DNA of 58,886 nt, the filler included, from Catajapyx aquilonaris (taxonomy: Eukaryota), in NCBI GenBank assembly GCA_000934665.2. It is 3 parts of 3 records of this genome, joined end to end, with 100 filler letters (N's around TTAATTAATTAA, not from the genome) between each part and the next. Parts side by side here need not be neighbours in the genome. Positions count along the whole stretch, not along the records: positions 1 to 19,550 come from JYFJ02006436.1; 2 more parts are not named here. One strand, 5' to 3'. The translations under genes and the position numbers were made by a program. The notes below the pieces were generated by a model that saw only the letters and a program-made list of their open reading frames with translations, was not told the DNA's origin and searched no databases. Positions 754 to 39,287 of the stretch are shown here, in pieces. Each line of letters opens with the position of its first letter. Within the stretch, counting starts at the first letter, position 1.

Positions 754-3700
754 TTATTCCTCATCATCATCCTCCTCCTCCTCCTCCTCCTCCTCCTGCT
801 CCTCTTCCTCCTCCTCCATGCCGTCGATGTCTTCCACGTCGTCTTCTTCGCTGGGGGGGTTGGCGTCCACCTTCTCCTCTTCTTCGTCGTCGTCGTCCAG
901 CTCCGAGCCTGGCTTGTTGATGTAAACCGTGCCACTCTCGTCGTCCTCCTTCGTCACAATGTCGTAGTTCTCCCTCAGATCTGTTGGGATTATTTACAAA
1001 CACGCATTACATACGGTTCCATGCACTCGATGGGTCTGGGGGTTTGGGTTAAGTTAGGTCACAAGAGCATGGAGGTCGCCAAAGCCACAATAACGTTCGT
1101 TGCCCTGCAGCGCCACAAGACGGACAGTAAGCATTGCGGATACAAAACATGCAATAAGAGCCCAGTTAAAATCATCAGGGAATGCGACCGACCGTGCCTG
1201 GCAGGGCGCCACAAGACGGCCAGTACTGGTGCGGTCACCCCAAAGCCATACAGATGACACCAACACAACGGGTTAGTTGTCAGGATACCCACATAGGAGA
1301 GCCTTGTAGATGGCAGCGTCGTCGAGGGAGGCAGCGATAACTGTCCTCACTCCATCCATAGAGGTCTTCTCAAGTTTGCCACCTTCGGCAGCAATCTTTG
1401 CGTCAGCCTTGGCCCACAGCCGACGAATTACCTGCAGGACCAGGCTCCTCGCCTGACGCGAGCTCCCACCCGCCTTCTGGCCGCCTCCTGGTCCTCCTGG
1501 TCCTCCTGGTCCGCCAGGACCACCTGGTCCAAAACCTGGTCCGCCTGGTCCAAAACCTGGTCCAAAACCTGGTCCGCCTGGTCCAAAACCTTGCCCACCT
1601 GGACCGAACCCTGGTCTACCTTGCCCTGGTCCACCGGGTCCGCCGGGTCCGAAACCAGGCCCCCCTTGTCCAGGTCCTCCTGGTCCAAAGCCAGGTCTAC
1701 CTTGACCTGGACCGCCTGGACCGCCTGGACCACCTGGACCGCCTGGACCACCTGGACCGCCTGGGCCAAAGCCAGGTCTACCCTGCCCTGGTCCTCCTGG
1801 GCCACCCGGGCCAAAGCCAGGTCTACCCTGCCCTGGTCCTCCAGGGCCACCAGGTCCAAAACCAGGTCTTCCTTGCCCCGGTCCTCCTGGACCACCCTGT
1901 CCGGGCCCGCCTGGACCACCCTGTCCGGGCCCGCCTGGACCACCCTGTCCTGGTCCTCCTTGGCCATAATTAGCCCAACCTTGTCCAGGCCCTCCTGGTC
2001 CAAAACCTGGTCCACCCGGGCCCGGTCCTCCTGGGCCATAACCTGGACCTCCAGGTCCGTAGCCTGGTCCGCCTTGACCCCCACCTGGTGGTCCTCCCGG
2101 TCCTCCCGGGCCATAACCTGGTCCTCCTGGGCCATAACCTGGCCCTCCTTGGCCATAACCTGGTCCTGCTTGTCCGTAGCCTGGTCCTCCGTAGCCTGGT
2201 CCTCCTTGGCCTGGTCCTCCTGGTCCATATCCTGGTCCACCTTGACCCCCACCTGGTGGGCCTCCTGGTGTGAGAAAGAGACAACAAGATTGGCAAATCA
2301 TGCGAGCGTGATTCTAGTATACTTTTCTCATTGGGCAGTGGGAAATAAGGCTGACAAACCCCATACGATACAACAGGATGCGAGTCTTAATCGGACAACA
2401 ATTACTATTGTTATCAGTCTCATTTGCAGCGGTTGCCACGGAACCCCCATTTATACGGTAATCTATGACTGTAGACTTGACCTCGTTGGATATAGTGTAC
2501 CCGGACAATCAGAAGTATTTGACCAAGAAACCTACTTATTGTCCACTGACTCGGAATCCGAAAACAGTTTGTCCCTATCTCATGCGGTTTAGGCCCTGAT
2601 ACCTGTCCACAGACGGACGGACAGACAGAGCCGTTCTATATAAGACTTTTTTCCGATGAGAAAAAGTCTAACAAGATTGGAAAATCACGCCGAGTGTGAT
2701 TCGATTAGACTTCATCACTGCCAAGGAAATTCTACAGGATGTAACACATGTTTCTGCCCCGCCACATATTGTGCTGAATAATTTTTTAATTGACATGTGG
2801 TGTATTCATTATGAATGTTTTACATGTATTCTTAATTGAAAGGATTGAGCAGCATGTCTGCCAAAACTATCCACAAGTTTGAATGCATGCTATGTGTGAC
2901 TGTTACCCATTTCTGGTCAAGTCTCTTAATTAACTGGCAGTAATTTTTTTGGACTGACTTGCTCACAGACATTGCACTACAACATGGCACTTAAGCGTTC
3001 AATATTGATGTCAGTCAGGGAGGCGGAGTGGTGCTGCGGTAACGTATGCGCCCACGGATGTTAAGGTCCCCGGGTTCGATCCCAACCCGGGGACACCCCC
3101 TTCTCAGGGTCACCTCTGGCTTCGTCTCGGGTGGTATTTCCTACAGACTAAACCACCCGGGGGAGTTCACTAAAAATGTCACAGTGTAAACATCCATATT
3201 CTAGAAGATTAAAAGATTTCTTTATGACTTTTGTTATGCACCTCAAATCTACAATATTAATGCTTAAGAGAACAATGCCTTAATCGCCTTTGGCCACCTA
3301 TCAGGTCTCGAGAACAAAGCACCTTCATGGGAGCCTCTCTCTACAGACAACACTTGCATTGCACATATGAGCACAAAATCAGGGCAGTGAGGAAATGGAC
3401 GGAGAAATTAGTCAGATTCGGATTCACCTGACACAATCTCATCGCGTTTGACGGTATATTTGTTTCAACAACCAAGCACTATGATAACTTTTATGCATCT
3501 GCAGGTAATCTACACTAATATATAATAATTTATATATACAATGCTACTATTAATTTTGTTGTAATGGAGTTTTGATGCTCAATGCTGCATTGTTGTGAGT
3601 ATAAGACATCAGATTACTCTCTTTTATGAGTCAAGGTTTGCGCAAGAACGCGCCAAATCATTGCGTAAAGCATACGTTTCCAAGTTACGACAACAGCTGC

Positions 3701-4354: not shown

Positions 4355-4361
4355 TTTTATA
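4355..4361 (-). promoter_or_regulatory. TATA box of GPGG-repeat gene
   Basis: TATAAAA on minus strand ~75 nt upstream of the ATG at 4280. Confidence 0.65.
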
Positions 4362-4494: not shown

Positions 4495-4717
4495 CTCTTA
4501 TCGCCTGCCGGGCCTGCCCGGGGCATGTTTCAGGAGGTGCCCGCATGATAGCGCACAATGGAGGTTTTCTTCACAGCTTAGACTAGTAGCGACACCACCG
4601 GACTCGGTAGAAGAGGAGCGAGTAGCCTCTCTTCTACCGAGTCCGGCGGTGTCTCCACTGCGAAGAAAACAGCCATAAAGGGCTATCATGCGGTCACCTC
4701 CCGGCAGGCGATAAGAG
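4495..4717. mobile_element. MITE/foldback element
   Basis: 18-bp inverted repeats CTCTTATCGCCTGCCGGG / CCCGGCAGGCGATAAGAG and an internal hairpin GACACCACCGGACTCGGTAGAAGAG...CTCTTCTACCGAGTCCGGCGGTGTC. Confidence 0.65.
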
Positions 4718-5710: not shown

Positions 5711-7207
5711 TCAAGCACGGATGACGACCACTAGTCCCGGAACCTTCTCCTGGAACGTCACGATCTCTCCTTCTTGCTGGAGGGCTGTCCAGAAATATAT
5801 CGCAATGGTTCGTATTAAGCGCATGCAGCATGTTCAGAGTAATAGTGAAATGTACGTACCCAGGAGGACCTTTAGGATGGTGATATCATCCATGATGCTG
5901 TGGAGGATCATCTTGAGCACCTCCAAGTTGATCGCCTCCACCTGTCCAGTCCGATCGTTATTATCCCATATCCTCTGGATGGCCCTCAACACTATGTCCT
6001 TCCCCGGAGTCAGGTTCAGGACGTCCTCCAGCGCAGCCGCGTTGTTCGCACCGTACCTGCCCGGTCCAGGATCGGGTAGGTTATCGCAGTTGCACATAGG
6101 TGGTGGCCGCCATGGCGCCTGAGGACAATGCTGCTCTGGTGTGTTCTTGGGAGCAGCGAACAGTTTGCTCATGAACCTGACTCCCAACGCAGGCCCCTCT
6201 CCAGACGACTCTTTCGAGCCTTTTTTTTCTGCGCTTTTTGCCTCGCTTTCTTCTGGACTCCCTGTGAATGGTAGGGAACTCAGATGAGTCAAGGCGGCAG
6301 GAGTTTAAAAGAATGTAAACATAACCTGCTGTAAAAGATATCAATTTGCACATGAGTTACAGGCCTCTTTGGGAACCTCCGTTTACAAGGGAGTTTGAGA
6401 CCCCTTTGATATACGTAAACGGCTTTAAAAAATAAGTTGGATTTAAACATGAGCTGTCAAACGCAACAAGCCAGAAGAGCTTCAGTTGTGATTGCTAAAC
6501 AACATAATTTTTCAACTAATAATATTATATCACCTCTGAAAGTATCGGACACTTTCAGAGGTCATAAAAATTATTAGTCGAAAAATTGAACATTACAACT
6601 TAACGTCGACAACAGGATCAAATAATCTCAGCACTCCCCACTTGCAATATTAATTAGTGCACATTGTTAAAATGTCGGGTGAACTTAAAATGGCACTTGA
6701 CAATCAAAATGCTGCATTGTCATGTAACATAACATTATTATGCTATCACACATATTCGTATAATTTTTTTTATGACTTCGGTTTGTGAGGCTGTAAATCA
6801 GCCTACTTGTGAGACTTCAACATAGCAAGGTCACAAAAGGTCAGCATCACCTTTTTATTTTATTTTTAAATGAACATTTGGGAACATAATGATGTAAACG
6901 TAGCCATAATTACATACGATAATGGAAACCGGTTTGTTTCGGTCTGTTAGTTTTGTCTCAAAAATTAGTTGTCATGAAGAAAATTTCAGGAAGCATTTCC
7001 GCACGAGGCAAGTTTCATTTGAGGTCGAAACGCCTTTAGTGAGTAAAAACAAACTCTTAAAAAATACAGAGTATTATTACATTACCGGTATTATATGAAA
7101 TTATTATATTATTTATGAAGTGTTTACGTACTAGTTTTGCGCACGAGTTCAGCACAATTGCAAGCAGCCAAGAGCAGGAAAAGTGTGAGTGGTATTTGCA
7201 GAAACAT
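5711..7207 (-). CDS. Small secreted protein, cluster member C, 183 aa, apparently intact
   Basis: Exon 7207-7132 encodes MFLQIPLTLFLLLAACNCAELVRKT (donor A|GTACGT). Exon 6261-5860 ends ...DIVLRAIQRIWDNNDRTGQVEAINLEVLKMILHSIMDDITILKVLL (donor G|GTACGT). Exon 5784-5711 encodes ALQQEGEIVTFQEKVPGLVVVIRA*. 76+402+74=552 nt; AATAAA at 5643-5638. Confidence 0.8.
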
Positions 7208-8140
7208 GTCTTTCCTTCTCCTTGGCTTCACGGAAAGACCTTCACTTCACTAGCACTTGGACTCTGTAAAATTTTTATGGTCTAACTGCGTCGTCGTGAC
7301 TGTGATGTCAAACACTGTCAGATTGATATGGTGCCACATATTTATTCGCCATTTTCAAGTTCGAAAAGAATAGGTCGTTCGCACCATTTAATGACCACGT
7401 AAAAATCATCGGAGATACCTTCAGTAGCTGATTAGCAATTTTTAAGTGTTAATCTGCCGGCCTTTAAGCAGTTAATTTTGCTGCTAATCTTAACATGAAC
7501 AGGATCACATTCATATGTGAAACGCAATGAATTTTCTAGCAAATGAGAGTATGACCCATCAGTGACAATGTTGCATAAGTAGACAATCCTGCATTACTTA
7601 ACACTAACTTAATTATGATTACACAAATGGAGATTTTTGAGTTTCAAATATATCATTAGATAGACAAAGATGTGCACTATCCAGGGTTCACAGGGGGAAT
7701 GTTTTGGCCTCCGAGAAGTGTCAGAAAAAATTCACACTGCGGCGTAACTTCGGCAACTAGCATGTTCTTCTTGCGATAAAAAATTACACAATGAAAATAG
7801 GTAAACAACTCGCACATATGTTACGTAGATTTAAACAACTTTCTGACGATGTATAACGTTATTTTTTTGGACCATTTTCCTGGGAATTATTTAGAGTCAA
7901 ACACAGGGGCGAGTATTAAAAAATCCGATAGTACATGATTACGAGTACCAATCACCATCAGTAATCACGATGCGTAAAGACAAGAGTAACCAGGCAGCAT
8001 ATCGGAAGAGAGCTAATTAGTGCGTAACTTACCACTACTAAAATTAGACGCAATGAACCGGGAAATTGATTCAATACTAATAACAAAATTAGCTTTATTA
8101 TGTTTAACTTTTCCATTCCTCGTAATGTGTCCAATGAAGA

Positions 8141-8956
8141 TCAAGCATGGAAGAAGACTAGTCCTGGAACCCCCTCCTGGAACGTCACGATCTCTCCTTC
8201 TTGCTGGAGGGTAGTCCAGTGCAATGGTTAGTATTTAACGCATGTACAGTGATGGTCATAAATCGAGGCAACTGCCAGCGACATTTTCCGAAGCGGCAGA
8301 AGAAGGAATCTTGCTCGCCCGGCTTGTAAGTATGCTCATCTTCGATTCCTTCTTCTGCCGCTTCGGAAAATGTCGCTGGCAGTTGCCTCGATTTATGCCC
8401 AACACTGTACTGAGTAACAGTGAAGTGTACGTACGCAGGAGGACATTTAGGATGGTGACATCGTCCAGTATGTTGTAGACTGTAGAGGCTCTTCTTCAGC
8501 GTCTCCATGGTGACCTGTCTCACCAGTCCCATCGTTCTTCTTCCATTTCATCTGTATGACCCGCATCACTATCTCCTTCCCTGGAGTCAGATTGAGGATG
8601 TCCTCCAGCGCAGTCTCGTTTGCCGCTTCATACAGTCTGCTTGGTCCGTTCACTTGCTGCATGCAGTTACACGCAGGTTGTACTGGAGGCGGACACCGTG
8701 CTATCTTCGGTGTGTCCTTGGGCCGGTGAGCTCAGGAATCTGACTCCCAGTTTGGGTCCTTCTCCTGACCCATGTTCAGTCGAGCCTGATGCTAACTTGC
8801 TTGTGGCACTCCCTGTAAACACCGAACATAACGAGTTAAAAAATTCATTAAGCATTTAAGTAAATGGGAAATGTACGTACTGGTCTTTAGCACGAGTTCA
8901 GTGCAGTTGCAAGTGGCCAAAAGCAGGAGTACAATGAACAGTCGCGGCAGAGACAT
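8141..8956 (-). pseudogene. Cluster member D, pseudogene paralogue of member C
   Basis: Signal exon 8956-8881 encodes MSLPRLFIVLLLLATCNCTELVLKT. Exon 2 from 8812 needs about three frame changes (GEGPKLGVRFLS / ACNC...ALEDILNLTPGKEIVMRVIQ / VTMETLKKSL / NILDDVTILNVLL). The last-exon acceptor AG is lost (ggactac vs ggacag) and a MITE sits in intron 2. Confidence 0.85.
8247..8407. mobile_element. Tc1/mariner-type palindromic MITE (161 bp)
   Basis: TA-CAGTG...CACTG-TA with ~65-bp inverted arms; absent from the equivalent intron of member C; second copy at 27551-27712. Confidence 0.9.
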
Positions 8957-9750: not shown

Positions 9751-12373
9751 TCAGCATTGCGAGGCAGGTCCTTGGTCCTTTGCCTCAAGCTTGCTGTTGG
9801 CACTTGCGAATCCGGTACCACCCTGAAAATTGAGCGTCAGATTAGTTACAGGCAAGACTAAATTGCTGGATCATATTACCCTCTGCAGTGAAATTATGTC
9901 CGATTCAGTCAGAGTTTCATCAGTCATCGGATGAAGCCAGTCCTTCTTTATGATGCGATCGACACATTCCTGTGTCACCACATCCCCACTTTTGCCAAGA
10001 AAAAAGTAGGTCTTAGAGACACCAGACTATTAGGTACACTATGAGTAAAAGTACTGCAAAACTCACGTGGTTTTGATGACGCAACATGGCACCGAGTTTC
10101 TCAGGATGTCGTGCGTTACAGGGCACATGTATCGGTCGGTCCTGGCAATCAGAGGCGTTGCATTGTCAGGATCATTAACTTCAGTGAACCTGACGTCAAT
10201 TAGTTCCTTGATCTTCAGAGGCTTTCCGCTTACAGGGCAATAGATGGCCTTGTCCTGCAAGCGTGAGTGTCAAAATTAGCTATGTCCAAGTCATAACGGG
10301 ACTGAAGTGGACGTGACTTTACAGGTTTCCTGAGTAGTGTCTGCTTGGCGTCAGGAGTCTGCGTTGGGATCCAAAAACTTGGTAGCTCCTTGTCCCTCCC
10401 TTCCGTCATGTTGGACATCGTGTTGGAGCTGCTTTGACCCTGTTCGGGCATCTCCTTGCTGGAGACAATTTCCTTCTCCCTCTGCTTGAAGGCTTCCAAC
10501 TTGGCTTTCTTGCAGCTGGCAGCCTCCTCGGACACATCCTTCTCCGCCTGACGTTTCTGCCGCTCGTATTCCTTCGACTTGCGGGTAAACTCTTCACGCT
10601 TTGCTACCACATACTCCAGAACAGCCTCCTTGTCGTACAAGACTCCATCTGGCCTACAATTTAAATAAAATGTTATTCACTCACCTATAGAAAGTCAAGT
10701 TTGGCTGAGGAAAAATACCAGATGGTCCAACATGAAACAGACTACAAATAAATTATGCGCACTTTGCTGTATCATGTCAAATTTAATTTCACGCAAAGAA
10801 ATTTTGTCAGACAGATATTAAATCCGATGGAACTTCATCCAAATTTTTTAGCCCCATAAAATTGGTTTTATTGCTCAACAATGCCGAACGGTGATGTATC
10901 ACTCATAATTATGTAAACACAGGCTAATTCATATAACTTTTTTTTTTTACCGATATTAAGAAATATTGGCAGTGTTTTATGCATTTATTGCTGCAAATTG
11001 TCAACTAAAGGATCCCTTCCAGGATTGATTTTGCAGTGTTCTGCAGTCTTATAGAAAGGCTCTGTCCATCCGTCCGTCCATCTGTGGACAGGTATCAGGG
11101 CCTAAACCGCCAGAGATAGCAACAAACGGTTTTCGGATTCGGATTCACTGGAACCATCCGGATTCACTCTATCCGCCAAGGTCAAGTCTACGCCTTATAA
11201 ATGAATTTTTTTGGGGTTGCCTTTTCTTATTGGACAGCGGGAAGTAAGGCTGACAACATTCTATGCGAATTGTTGACCAGTTAGAATCGCATCGTGTCAC
11301 ATCGTATCGGATTCAACAAAGTTGTCAGTAGCACTGTCCACTGCCCCATGAGAAAAAGTGTACTCGAATGACACTGGCGTGATTTTCCAATCTCGTTTCA
11401 TGCAATATTATGGGGAACAGTTTCCAATAAAAATTATTGCGGAACACTGCCGTCAGTTGTAAGAAGACCGCAACTCAAAAACTAGTACGGGCGAAAGTCG
11501 CATGCATGCCACGCACTAATCCACCCTGGCTCAGAGGGGATAAGTGCAGGGCGTGCATGCGACTTTCGCCATTACTAGTTTTTGAGTTACGGTCTTCTTA
11601 CAACTGATGGCAGAACACTGCAAAATCAATCCTGGAAGAGATCAGTTTGTGTCTGTGAATCGGATTCCCTTGCATTGCTCCTTTTTCAATGAGGTTGCGC
11701 CAAGTTGTACAATCATCAGTTATTGGCGTGCCATGAAAGCATCACAATATTAATCGATTACAATCACATTGTGAGTGTCGTAAAGCGTGTTACGCCCAGT
11801 ACAGTCCTGGACAAATTAGCCGTCGCTGAATGTTTTTTTTTAGGCGGAGGCGGCGGCGGCGTTACCTGGCAACCCCGTCCGGCGGGCCAATTCAAACGTC
11901 AGCCCATGAAGAGCGCTTCCATTGTTGCCACTGTTTACAAATCGAGTGAGTGAGTGCGCAGGCGCTGGGTCGTCTGCGTCACTCACTCGATTTGTAAACA
12001 GTGGCAACAATGGAAGCACTCTCCTTATGCCGATGTTTGAATTGGCCCGCCGGACGGGGTTGCCAGGTAACGCCGCCGCCGCAGCCGCCGGAAAAAACCA
12101 TTCAGCGACGGCTAATTTGTCCAGCACTCTACCGATCTGCGTGTAAAGTGTCCCTAATTGCGACAATCCCTTAATTGAATCCGGCAGGTAGTCTTACGTG
12201 ATGACAGGATTCCTGCAGGGTTGCAGCGTGAGGCTGCAGCAGTCAAAGTCCTTCACCGAGTCCTTTCCCATCCGCTGCGACCTGGATCCATACCCAGAGG
12301 CCTTTGCATCCTTCCTTTTCTCGTGGTAAGTGTACACCGCACCAGCAGTGCAGTTCTTGGCATGGCGAGTCAT
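9751..12373 (-). CDS. NOSIP: Nitric oxide synthase-interacting protein (split U-box/RING-type E3), 291 aa
   Basis: Begins MTRHAKNCTAGAVYTYHE...GKDSVKDFDCCSLTLQPC; contains LPSFWIP, CPVSGKPLK, RYMCPVTHDIL and LQRGGTGFAS. Exons 12373-12198, 10653-10323, 10254-10067, 9988-9880 and 9822-9751 are all GT-AG, total 876 nt. Confidence 0.95.
11011..11643. mobile_element. Nested intronic TE complex
   Basis: Outer ~34-bp inverted repeats GATCCCTTCCAGGATTGATTTTGCAGTGTTCTGC / GCAGAACACTGCAAAATCAATCCTGGAAGAGATC enclose a Helentron-like copy (11045-11397) and a palindrome (~11446-11613). Confidence 0.65.
11802..12129. mobile_element. GC-rich foldback MITE
   Basis: ~150-bp inverted arms (CTGGACAAATTAGCCGTCGCTGAATG ... 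CATTCAGCGACGGCTAATTTGTCCAG), which explains the mirror ORFs on both strands. Confidence 0.8.
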
Positions 12374-12948: not shown

Positions 12949-13419
12949 TTAGTAAGACATTGGAGGCTGTCCATACAATGGAGGCCCAAATGGAGGCCCA
13001 CCCGATGGGCCATGACATGCCGGTGAGGGAGCACGGAACAAAAACACTGTTTGAAAATACAGGACAGGTACATAGTAATGGAGCCAAATAACGGTAGTAG
13101 TGTTGACCCTGAGAGGAATGGAGTGCAGACGATATCCTGCTATGCGGACAAATCTGTTCGCACTGTATCCTGCTGGATACCCCCATGCCGGATGGCCAGG
13201 ACTTCTTTGTCCATGCCTCTCCTGGTCGTATGCCATGCGTTTCTCCTTGTCGATCAGCACCTGGTAGGCTCCATAGATCTCCTTGAACTTCTCTTCAGCC
13301 CCCGGATCCTTGTTCTTATCTGGATGCCACCTGAGGGCCAGCTTGTGATAGGCTCTCCTAATGTCCGCATCGGTAGCGTTGGAAGCAACGTCCAGGATCC
13401 CATAGTAGTCCTTCGGCAT
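12949..13419 (-). CDS. Small J-domain (DnaJ/Hsp40) protein, ~156 aa
   Basis: MPKDYYGILDV...IRRAYHKLALRWHPDKNKDPGAEEKFKEIYGAYQVLIDKEKRMAYDQ with an intact HPD motif; short atypical Pro-rich C-terminus; 3' structure uncertain. Confidence 0.8.
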   Translation of the reverse strand: MPKDYYGILDVASNATDADIRRAYHKLALRWHPDKNKDPGAEEKFKEIYGAYQVLIDKEKRMAYDQERHGQRSPGHPAWGYPAGYSANRFVRIAGYRLHSIPLRVNTTTVIWLHYYVPVLYFQTVFLFRAPSPACHGPSGGPPFGPPLYGQPPMSY

Positions 13420-14642: not shown

Positions 14643-14992
14643 CAGGGAGCATATACTGCATAAGAGGCGCAAACATTCGATTTCCGCGTCTCTCTGTATG
14701 AGGCGTTGCCGAGGCTGGCGTCCATTTTGAAGTGTGGCCAACTCCAACGAAGTATAAATAGGGTACAGGCAAAAATAGGGTCCGCCATCTTTGATTCGCA
14801 CGTGTTCTTGCCCTGTAGTTGCCATGGTGGCCAAAACCATCAAAGATGGCGGACCCTATTTTTGCATGTACCCTATTTATACCTCGTTGGAGTTGCCCAC
14901 ACTTCAAAATGGACGCCAGTCTTGGCAACGGCACCAAACAGAGAGACGCGGAAATCGAATGTTTGCACCTCGTATGTAGTATATGCTCCCTG
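14643..14992. mobile_element. Foldback MITE (~350 bp)
   Basis: Long imperfect inverted arms CAGGGAGCATATACT...AGTATATGCTCCCTG; mirror ORFs on both strands. Confidence 0.8.
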
Positions 14993-19550: not shown

Positions 19551-19650
19551 NNNNNNNNNNNNNNNNNNNNNNNNNNNNNNNNNNNNNNNNNNNNTTAATT
19601 AATTAANNNNNNNNNNNNNNNNNNNNNNNNNNNNNNNNNNNNNNNNNNNN
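19551..19650. other. Scaffold gap with TTAATTAATTAA spacer
   Basis: N-run, TTAATTAATTAA, N-run; 100 nt; same as the second gap. Confidence 0.95.
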
Positions 19651-21112: not shown

Positions 21113-23354
<2,242 letters not shown>

Positions 23355-39187: not shown

Positions 39188-39287
39188 NNNNNNNNNNNNN
39201 NNNNNNNNNNNNNNNNNNNNNNNNNNNNNNNTTAATTAATTAANNNNNNNNNNNNNNNNNNNNNNNNNNNNNNNNNNNNNNNNNNNN
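39188..39287. other. Scaffold gap with TTAATTAATTAA spacer
   Basis: Same structure as 19551-19650. Confidence 0.95.

Follow-up and report, generated by a model that had tools for sequence, protein, structure and literature searches.

A stretch of 58,886 nucleotides from Catajapyx aquilonaris (in the following, the window) carries close to its start, on the minus strand, a gene with a Gly/Pro repeat block, a domain of an orphan protein family and a polyacidic tail. The end of the block, the domain and the tail share one spliced transcript, and the amino acid pattern of the repeat is kept by selection. We consider it rather likely that the gene product is secreted and cross-linkable, serving as an elastic gel, glue or matrix protein of which the block makes up the disordered, rubber-like middle. 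The block and the two open reading frames (ORFs) that overlap it are:

2262-1480, minus strand: Gly/Pro repeat block, 261 stop-free codons with PGG triplets, [Y/F]GPGGPG heptads and QG inserts
1297-2592, plus strand: shadow ORF of 431 codons
1428-2297, minus strand: shadow ORF of 289 codons

The translated block contains 149 Gly, 66 Pro, 17 Gln, 11 Phe, 9 Tyr, 5 Arg, 2 Ala, 1 Trp and 1 Asn residues (57.1% Gly, 25.3% Pro). A previous reading of the same DNA, made from the sequence only, had described about 265 residues built almost exclusively of G, P, Q, Y, F and R; the alphabet holds for 257 of the 261 residues, to which the length is corrected. Gly and Pro together account for 82% of the block, versus at most 20% of every other 261-codon stretch in the six frames of the window from 2401 to 58886, and versus 300 dinucleotide resamples that averaged 36% and reached 45% at most. 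These resamples contained GPGG up to three times, the block 32 times. The residue after GPGG is Pro in 30 of the 32 cases and another one in two, and the register is that of PGG (34 units) with the heptad [Y/F]GPGGPG (14 units). The name GPGGX given to the block by the sequence-only reading is therefore imprecise, and the motifs GPGGY and GPGQQ quoted with it do not occur in the block; neither do GPGGA, GPGGS or poly-Ala (AAAA). Tetrapeptides of the type GPG[Y/F/Q] were counted 24 times, and the 21 aromatic residues have a mean spacing of 11.6.

When 23 DNA-selected, partly overlapping blocks of the repeat were compared, 68 of the 85 mismatches fell on third positions of the Gly/Pro frame. As this frame also continues in phase through the spliced junction described below, it is the coding frame. 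The 34 PGG units are encoded by 17 different 9-mers, which together with the third-position mismatches indicates that the amino acid pattern is selected and that the array is no fresh, identical expansion. Two further frames (+0 and -2) are open over the block; the corresponding shadow ORFs were rejected as coding sequences, as they arise from the codon make-up of the Gly/Pro frame.

The block fills the leading two thirds of exon 2, which is 972 nt long (2264-1293, minus strand). The remaining parts of the gene model are:

4355-4361, minus strand: TATA-like box TATAAAA, 81 nt upstream of the start codon (motif match only)
4280-4193, minus strand: exon 1, predicted signal peptide, cleavage probable after residue 23, phase-1 donor GTAAGG
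4192-2265, minus strand: predicted intron 1, 1928 nt, GT-AG
1464-1293, minus strand: family domain, exon-2 part, amphipathic helices
1292-981, minus strand: intron 2, 312 nt, GT-AG, phase 1; joint 980-1293 in a contig of the public run X1, short side 160 letters
980-754, minus strand: exon 3, end of the domain and acidic tail
980-910, minus strand: family domain, exon-3 part, aligning with the last exon of the paralogues
909-754, minus strand: acidic tail and stop codon, 51 amino acids with 36 Asp/Glu; 821-980 lies inside the spliced contig
672-667, minus strand: candidate poly(A) signal AATAAA (motif match only)

According to this predicted model, three exons encode a product of 428 amino acids that consists of a signal peptide, the block, a non-repetitive domain of 76-81 residues and the acidic tail. 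The modelled mature chain would have 405 residues, 37.6 kDa, a pI of 4.2 and a net charge of -27 (block alone +5), with 24 Gln and 9 Lys; no hydrophobic segment follows the signal peptide (best 19-residue hydropathy 1.18). The sequence-only reading had covered the middle of this protein, leaving out signal exon, family domain and tail. It had named a lack of secretion or expression as refuting; transcription and splicing are supported, and secretion is predicted from the signal exon. The kind of run X1 is not recorded; GT-AG introns are skipped by its contigs, for which reason it was treated as RNA. One single contig covers 1551-1293 and 980-821 with no difference from the genome and skips exactly intron 2, which places the end of the block, the domain and the tail on one spliced transcript. 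The genome match of another contig ends at 2265 and the contig runs on for 17 letters, as expected of a splice acceptor. The three X1 pieces listed within the block likewise show no differences from the genome.

The junction of exons 1 and 2 is predicted, as is secretion. Exon 1 was the best of seven candidate first exons between 2300 and 5700 (hydropathy 3.29 versus 1.49 for the next), is present as a single copy in the genome (G000) and weakly resembles the signal exons of the paralogues, with scores reached by 26, 59 and 26 of 2000 shuffles. Lack of X1 cover, as for exon 1 and for paralogue A below, was not taken as evidence of silence. Within intron 1, a repeat at 3018-3180 showed a very high depth of X1 contigs (bin mean 4734). 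A tRNA-like B-box can be recognised in it by eye and ARAGORN finds no tRNA; the repeat is probably a short interspersed element (SINE).

The non-repetitive domain connects the gene to a small family of paralogues, three of which lie in the window and two on another contig of the genome:

7207-5711, minus strand: paralogue B, intact, 183 amino acids, exons 7207-7132, 6261-5860 and 5784-5711, with signal peptide, Pro/Cys linker and the same domain
8956-8141, minus strand: paralogue A, broken; signal exon and last exon can be recognised, the middle exon is scattered across several frames
5071-4782, minus strand: paralogue E, a remnant with domain pieces in two frames
18196-17402 and 12332-11610 of contig C3789: two intact copies, paralogues C (140 amino acids) and D (185 amino acids)

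Of the four loci of the family in the window, two are thus broken, and a last exon of paralogue E was not found. The copies C and D share 71 of 76 domain residues, and a lone copy of the signal exon lies near 13089 of the same contig. The intact siblings B, C and D (140-185 amino acids) consist of little beyond signal peptide, linker and domain; none of them has the repeat block or an acidic tail. In the domain, 20, 24 and 22 of 76 residues of the block-bearing protein are identical to B, C and D, respectively (26-32%). The score against B is 92, versus 23.5 on average and at most 45 among 2000 shuffles, and for the exon-3 part alone the score was reached by one shuffle in 2000. All four intact genes have three exons and phase-1/phase-1 introns, the second of which interrupts the domain at the same position in each. 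X1 contigs join the exons across intron 2 of the block-bearing gene and across both introns of B, the signal exon of B being thus seen spliced; intron 1 of the block-bearing gene is predicted. By these alignments and the shared gene structure, the block-bearing protein is a divergent member of the orphan family B, C and D. Its distance from the siblings amounts to dS 1.65-1.96 and dN 0.67-0.77, with silent sites near saturation.

In the siblings a Pro/Cys linker (C..W.PPP..C.C) precedes the domain, where the block-bearing gene has the Gly/Pro block instead. By eye, paralogue B contains a short GPG..YG stretch at the place of the block, which may possibly be its seed. A gain of the block in one copy rather than a loss in the others is the simpler reading of a comparison that includes no outgroup. 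The block-bearing gene is single-copy in the genome, where no second Gly/Pro block of this kind was scored, and contigs C3970, C3971, C3788 and C3790 contained no further family member; genome-wide searches of this kind would miss members as divergent as the block-bearing gene. X1 contigs also join the regions of A and B (5785-8484 and 8126-5548). These joints are probably transcripts of another family copy placed on two similar sites and not real splicing. A palindromic element occupies the second intron of A (arms 8244-8310 and 8344-8410, 97% complementary), and another one (4533-4701) lies just behind paralogue E.

Within the block, the aromatic residues change from Tyr to Phe along four zones:

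2262-1966, minus strand: Tyr zone, 9 Tyr, 1 Phe and 1 Trp, Tyr at block residues 12-99
1965-1870, minus strand: Gln zone, three GPGQGGPG units
1869-1606, minus strand: Arg/Phe zone, five GQGRPGFG units
1605-1480, minus strand: Phe zone with a terminal PGG run, Phe only

This succession is the one given by the sequence-only reading. Its further description as a Tyr-to-Arg/Phe gradient is right in the order and wrong in the shape, since the series YYYYYYYYFYFFFFFFFFFF contains one inversion and forms a near-perfect step, not a smooth gradient. Such an order was reached by 4 of 200,000 permutations, a test that overstates the step because neighbouring units share descent and are not independent. 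All five Arg residues use the codon AGA in the same GQG-R-PGF context; AGA is one base away from GGA, the commonest Gly codon, and the Tyr and Phe codons TAT/TTT and TAC/TTC are likewise one base apart. One or two point changes spread by local unequal exchange or tandem duplication can explain these zones, and their functional zoning is thus unproven. Many silent positions vary among the units with Arg, whereas Arg and Phe themselves are kept, which fits retention by selection, in an argument that is partly circular because the units were chosen by their amino acids. Overall, a function of the zones appears doubtful. The separate crosslinking and cation-pi zones proposed earlier would rest on 9 Tyr and 5 Arg, and duplication without selection for zoning suffices to produce them. 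In a chain with so negative a net charge, the five Arg residues may as well pair with the acidic tail as with Phe.

Several known elastomers resemble the block-bearing protein. The extensibility motif of MaSp2 and Flag is GPGX/GPGXX, where X stands for G, Q or Y (PMC12586329), and the extensibility of both silks is linked to motifs of the GPGX type (PMC12586329, PMC8957953). Common to these silks and the block-bearing protein are a repeat dominated by Gly and Pro, the GPG[Y/F/Q] tetrapeptides, a C-terminal domain without repeats and a signal peptide, which is predicted here. In contrast to spidroins, which exceed 250 kDa as a rule (PMC8957953), the protein has 38 kDa, lacks the poly-Ala, GPGQQ and GPGGY motifs, departs from Pro after GPGG in the two cases mentioned and carries a polyacidic tail. 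Spidroin N- and C-terminal domains were found neither by Pfam in exon 2, the block and a member of the half-domain alignment nor among the PDB sequence matches. We regard the likeness to Flag and MaSp2 as analogy only; a spidroin was rejected for the missing termini, motifs and size.

Resilin of the Drosophila CG15920 type shares with the protein the predicted secretion, the Gly-rich, Tyr-bearing composition and a similar modest size. Gly-rich resilin is set by dityrosine, and GRPG, present five times in the block, also stands in the resilin exon-3 motif as printed (PMC9999432). The block-bearing protein differs in having neither a Rebers-Riddiford domain nor the resilin consensus rich in Ser, Asp or Asn, in being far richer in Pro and in confining Tyr to the first 99 block residues. 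Since Pfam scans of exon 2 and exon 3, run separately, gave no such domain, a resilin or CPR cuticular protein was rejected. Scallop abductin is a short or modular Gly-rich elastomer with Phe in its repeat, and the flanks of mussel preCol-P are Gly-rich modular elastomers with GXGPG repeats; Tyr near a terminus has been proposed for crosslinks (PMC9999432). Abductin has about 1% Pro and much Met, unlike the block-bearing protein, which also lacks the collagen core and His ends of preCol-P. In the species-specific, silk-like secretions of Keroplatus testaceus, small families of orphan, disordered, proline-rich secreted proteins form webs without fibroin, but with 10-27% Pro and other alphabets, PK-rich or collagen-like GVP/GQP (PMC13728221). 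A collagen was rejected. The longest runs with Gly at every third position comprise 5-7 triplets, in agreement with the sequence-only reading that there is no continuous Gly-X-Y frame, and no Collagen match was found in Pfam.

Outside relatives of the family did not emerge. The searches for outside homologues used the exon-2 half of the domain, with which a distant family may have been missed. A word search with region 262-323 of exon 2 against proteins of 177-566 amino acids yielded 57 candidates, none at E ≤10, and the exon-2-half alignment gave no match at E ≤1 among 7999 scored proteins of 47-237 amino acids. A profile search over 1.84 billion representatives returned one match, P0001 (E 5.5e-9, four stretches). 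This 1543-residue repeat protein was rejected as a relative, since its score adds up the contributions of a short helical segment repeated within it. In the ESM Atlas, the best match of the half domain (0.85) was to hypothetical clusters, with recognition below the useful level. Pfam held no family for exon 2, the block or a member of the half-domain alignment at E up to 1-10; for exon 3, the acidic tail matched Prothymosin below the threshold (E 0.26). The PHROGs search produced nothing at its cut-offs. Among PDB sequences, the sole phmmer matches of exon 2 were four RPB1 entries (E 1.3e-4, query residues 10-93), and the half-domain profile matched designed helical repeats and dynein; all of these were treated as composition matches and rejected as homology. 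Foldseek found no match for the models of the exon-2 half. By eye, the whole domain reads as helix-strand-helix-helix-hairpin, a winged-helix-like order that is odd for a secreted protein and that the half-domain models neither show nor exclude. No literature describing the protein or the family was found among titles and the beginnings of abstracts.

The account that we favour takes the protein as a structural product of an arthropod gland or epidermis. In one copy of a lineage-specific family, the Pro/Cys-rich linker would have been replaced by tandemly amplified PGG and [Y/F]GPGGPG units and an acidic tail added. A high combined content of Pro and Gly separates disordered elastomers from amyloids (PMC5424786), and the block has the high Pro and Gly content named by this rule. 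From the rule, the extensibility of GPGX and the dityrosine of resilin we infer a hydrated, extensible chain, and all of the mechanics that follow are of this conditional kind. Pro-Gly turns and the high Gly and Pro content would keep the chain hydrated and free of beta-sheet, and the aromatics, about every 12 residues, would provide reversible sticking. The network could be fixed by Tyr-Tyr or Gln-Lys bonds, the family domain may dock the chain on siblings or on itself, and the acidic tail may hold it in solution until setting is triggered by cations, low pH or a basic partner. By analogy, the protein most likely works like the amorphous regions of Flag and MaSp2, resilin and abductin. The sequence-only reading had proposed an elastic fibre or adhesive protein. 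Its elastomer part agrees with the Gly and Pro make-up, elastic behaviour being the conditional step; the fibre part does not, as a chain of 38 kDa without poly-Ala or other crystal-forming blocks is unlike fibre-forming silk, and a spun crystalline fibre suits it less well than a gel, glue, plug, stalk or cuticle matrix that can be extended. PEBme of Drosophila, which is secreted and comparable in size, reportedly bears PGG repeats and forms the mating plug; no sequence link to it turned up in the homologue searches with the exon-2 half of the domain.

Some observations weigh against this account. The modelled mature chain contains neither Cys nor His, and Pfam scans of exon 2 and exon 3, each on its own, found no chitin-binding or other domain and hence no anchoring or crosslinking partner. 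The AlphaFold models of the exon-2 half consist of two long helices at low confidence (pTM 0.39 and 0.32). Among the X1 contigs compared, none covers exon 1, which leaves the N-terminus as predicted, and none spans the whole block, whose repeat length rests on the assembly. Between B and C, dN 0.30 stands against dS 0.38, a weak constraint on the family domain.

A secreted protein that bears no load, in which the domain binds a surface, a partner or a microbe and the block and tail serve as tether, lubricant or hydration brush, would suit the three intact siblings, where the domain acts without any elastomer. It would also suit the position of the block where these have a Pro-rich linker, and the small, single-copy protein. 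A tether has no need for regularly spaced aromatics, nor for so narrow an alphabet kept against silent drift, and we hold this explanation to be rather unlikely. A stiff material appears quite unlikely. It would be formed by PGG runs packed as polyglycine-II/polyproline-II sheets or bundles, or be a Tyr-tanned hard cuticle or eggshell. Poly(Pro-Gly-Gly) packs in an ordered fashion, triplets in PGG phase cover 73% of the block, and 30 of the 65 Pro-Pro spacings are exactly three; but X-G inserts break the phase every few units, and the longest in-phase run has seven triplets. The favoured elastomer could also be taken further, as one caught at birth: in one copy of a family of small secreted proteins with an undescribed, perhaps winged-helix-like domain, a block-copolymer rubber would have arisen. 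It would have a dityrosine-crosslinking N-terminal zone, a coacervating Arg/Phe zone, a domain for self-assembly and an acidic tail triggered by ions, and with the block-less siblings as co-assembling partners it would form silk or glue in an arthropod lineage from whose secretions no proteins are known. This extended version is unlikely.

Two other explanations deny the block a role in an extracellular material. The 14 heptads place the aromatic at position 1 and Pro at positions 3 and 6, the [Y/F]xPxxP spacing of the RNA polymerase II tail. Together with the RPB1 matches, the winged-helix-like domain and the uncovered exon 1, this could point to an intracellular, probably nuclear, condensate protein made of an aromatic low-complexity block, the domain and the acidic tail, with a signal exon that is foreign or unused. 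The block, however, contains no Ser or Thr, and the likeness of the heptads is probably a convergent turn spacing, the RPB1 match an effect of composition. Moreover, the siblings have signal exons, one of them (B) seen spliced, and the predicted exon 1 resembles those exons, is in the correct phase and comes with a TATA box, which makes such a condensate protein scarcely credible. The broken family loci and the lack of a contig across the block could instead reflect an expansion of the repeat that is recent and either nearly neutral or mis-assembled, in a gene under decay whose family turns over fast. Against this stand an open frame of 783 nt with mismatches concentrated at silent sites, intact splice sites, a spliced transcript and the X1 pieces identical to the genome, and it is very improbable.

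The remaining part of the window contains ordinary genes and palindromic elements; the genes are:

12370-9780, minus strand: NOSIP (Pfam zf-NOSIP)
13548-12949, minus strand: DnaJ-domain gene
16388-15741, minus strand: zinc-finger array, presumably of the C2H2 type
22216-23146, plus strand: AAA ATPase gene, which we take to be VPS4-like
32171-30068, minus strand: pyruvate dehydrogenase phosphatase

Among the 120 of 242 matches listed for the pyruvate dehydrogenase phosphatase exon, named proteins of many insect orders share 59-68% identity, none being clearly nearer, and one further protein shares 84%. This places the arthropod near or inside the hexapods and apart from the named orders in that listing; it may be a wingless hexapod. 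Nested or long palindromic elements resembling miniature inverted-repeat transposable elements (MITEs) lie at 11004-12132 and 14643-14992. The latter recurs with 90% identity on contig C3789, where the family copies sit among several long ORFs that presumably resemble paralogues of peptide-receptor G protein-coupled receptors (GPCRs). Paired N runs with 12-nt islands at 19551-19650 and 39188-39287 show that three contigs or more make up the window; contig C3972 begins with the gene cluster.

Secreted structural proteins rich in Gly and Pro arose many times and form a familiar class. New here are the architecture of predicted signal peptide, PGG/heptad block, orphan domain and polyacidic tail and the survival of block-less siblings. 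The adjoining non-repetitive siblings show the starting point before the gain of repeat and acidic tail and can serve directly as controls when the contribution of the block is examined. If the protein is an elastomer, it should be easy to produce as a recombinant material owing to the heptad [Y/F]GPGGPG and the compact size of 38 kDa, and its natural switch from Tyr to Phe would allow a clean test of covalent versus reversible aromatic sticking.

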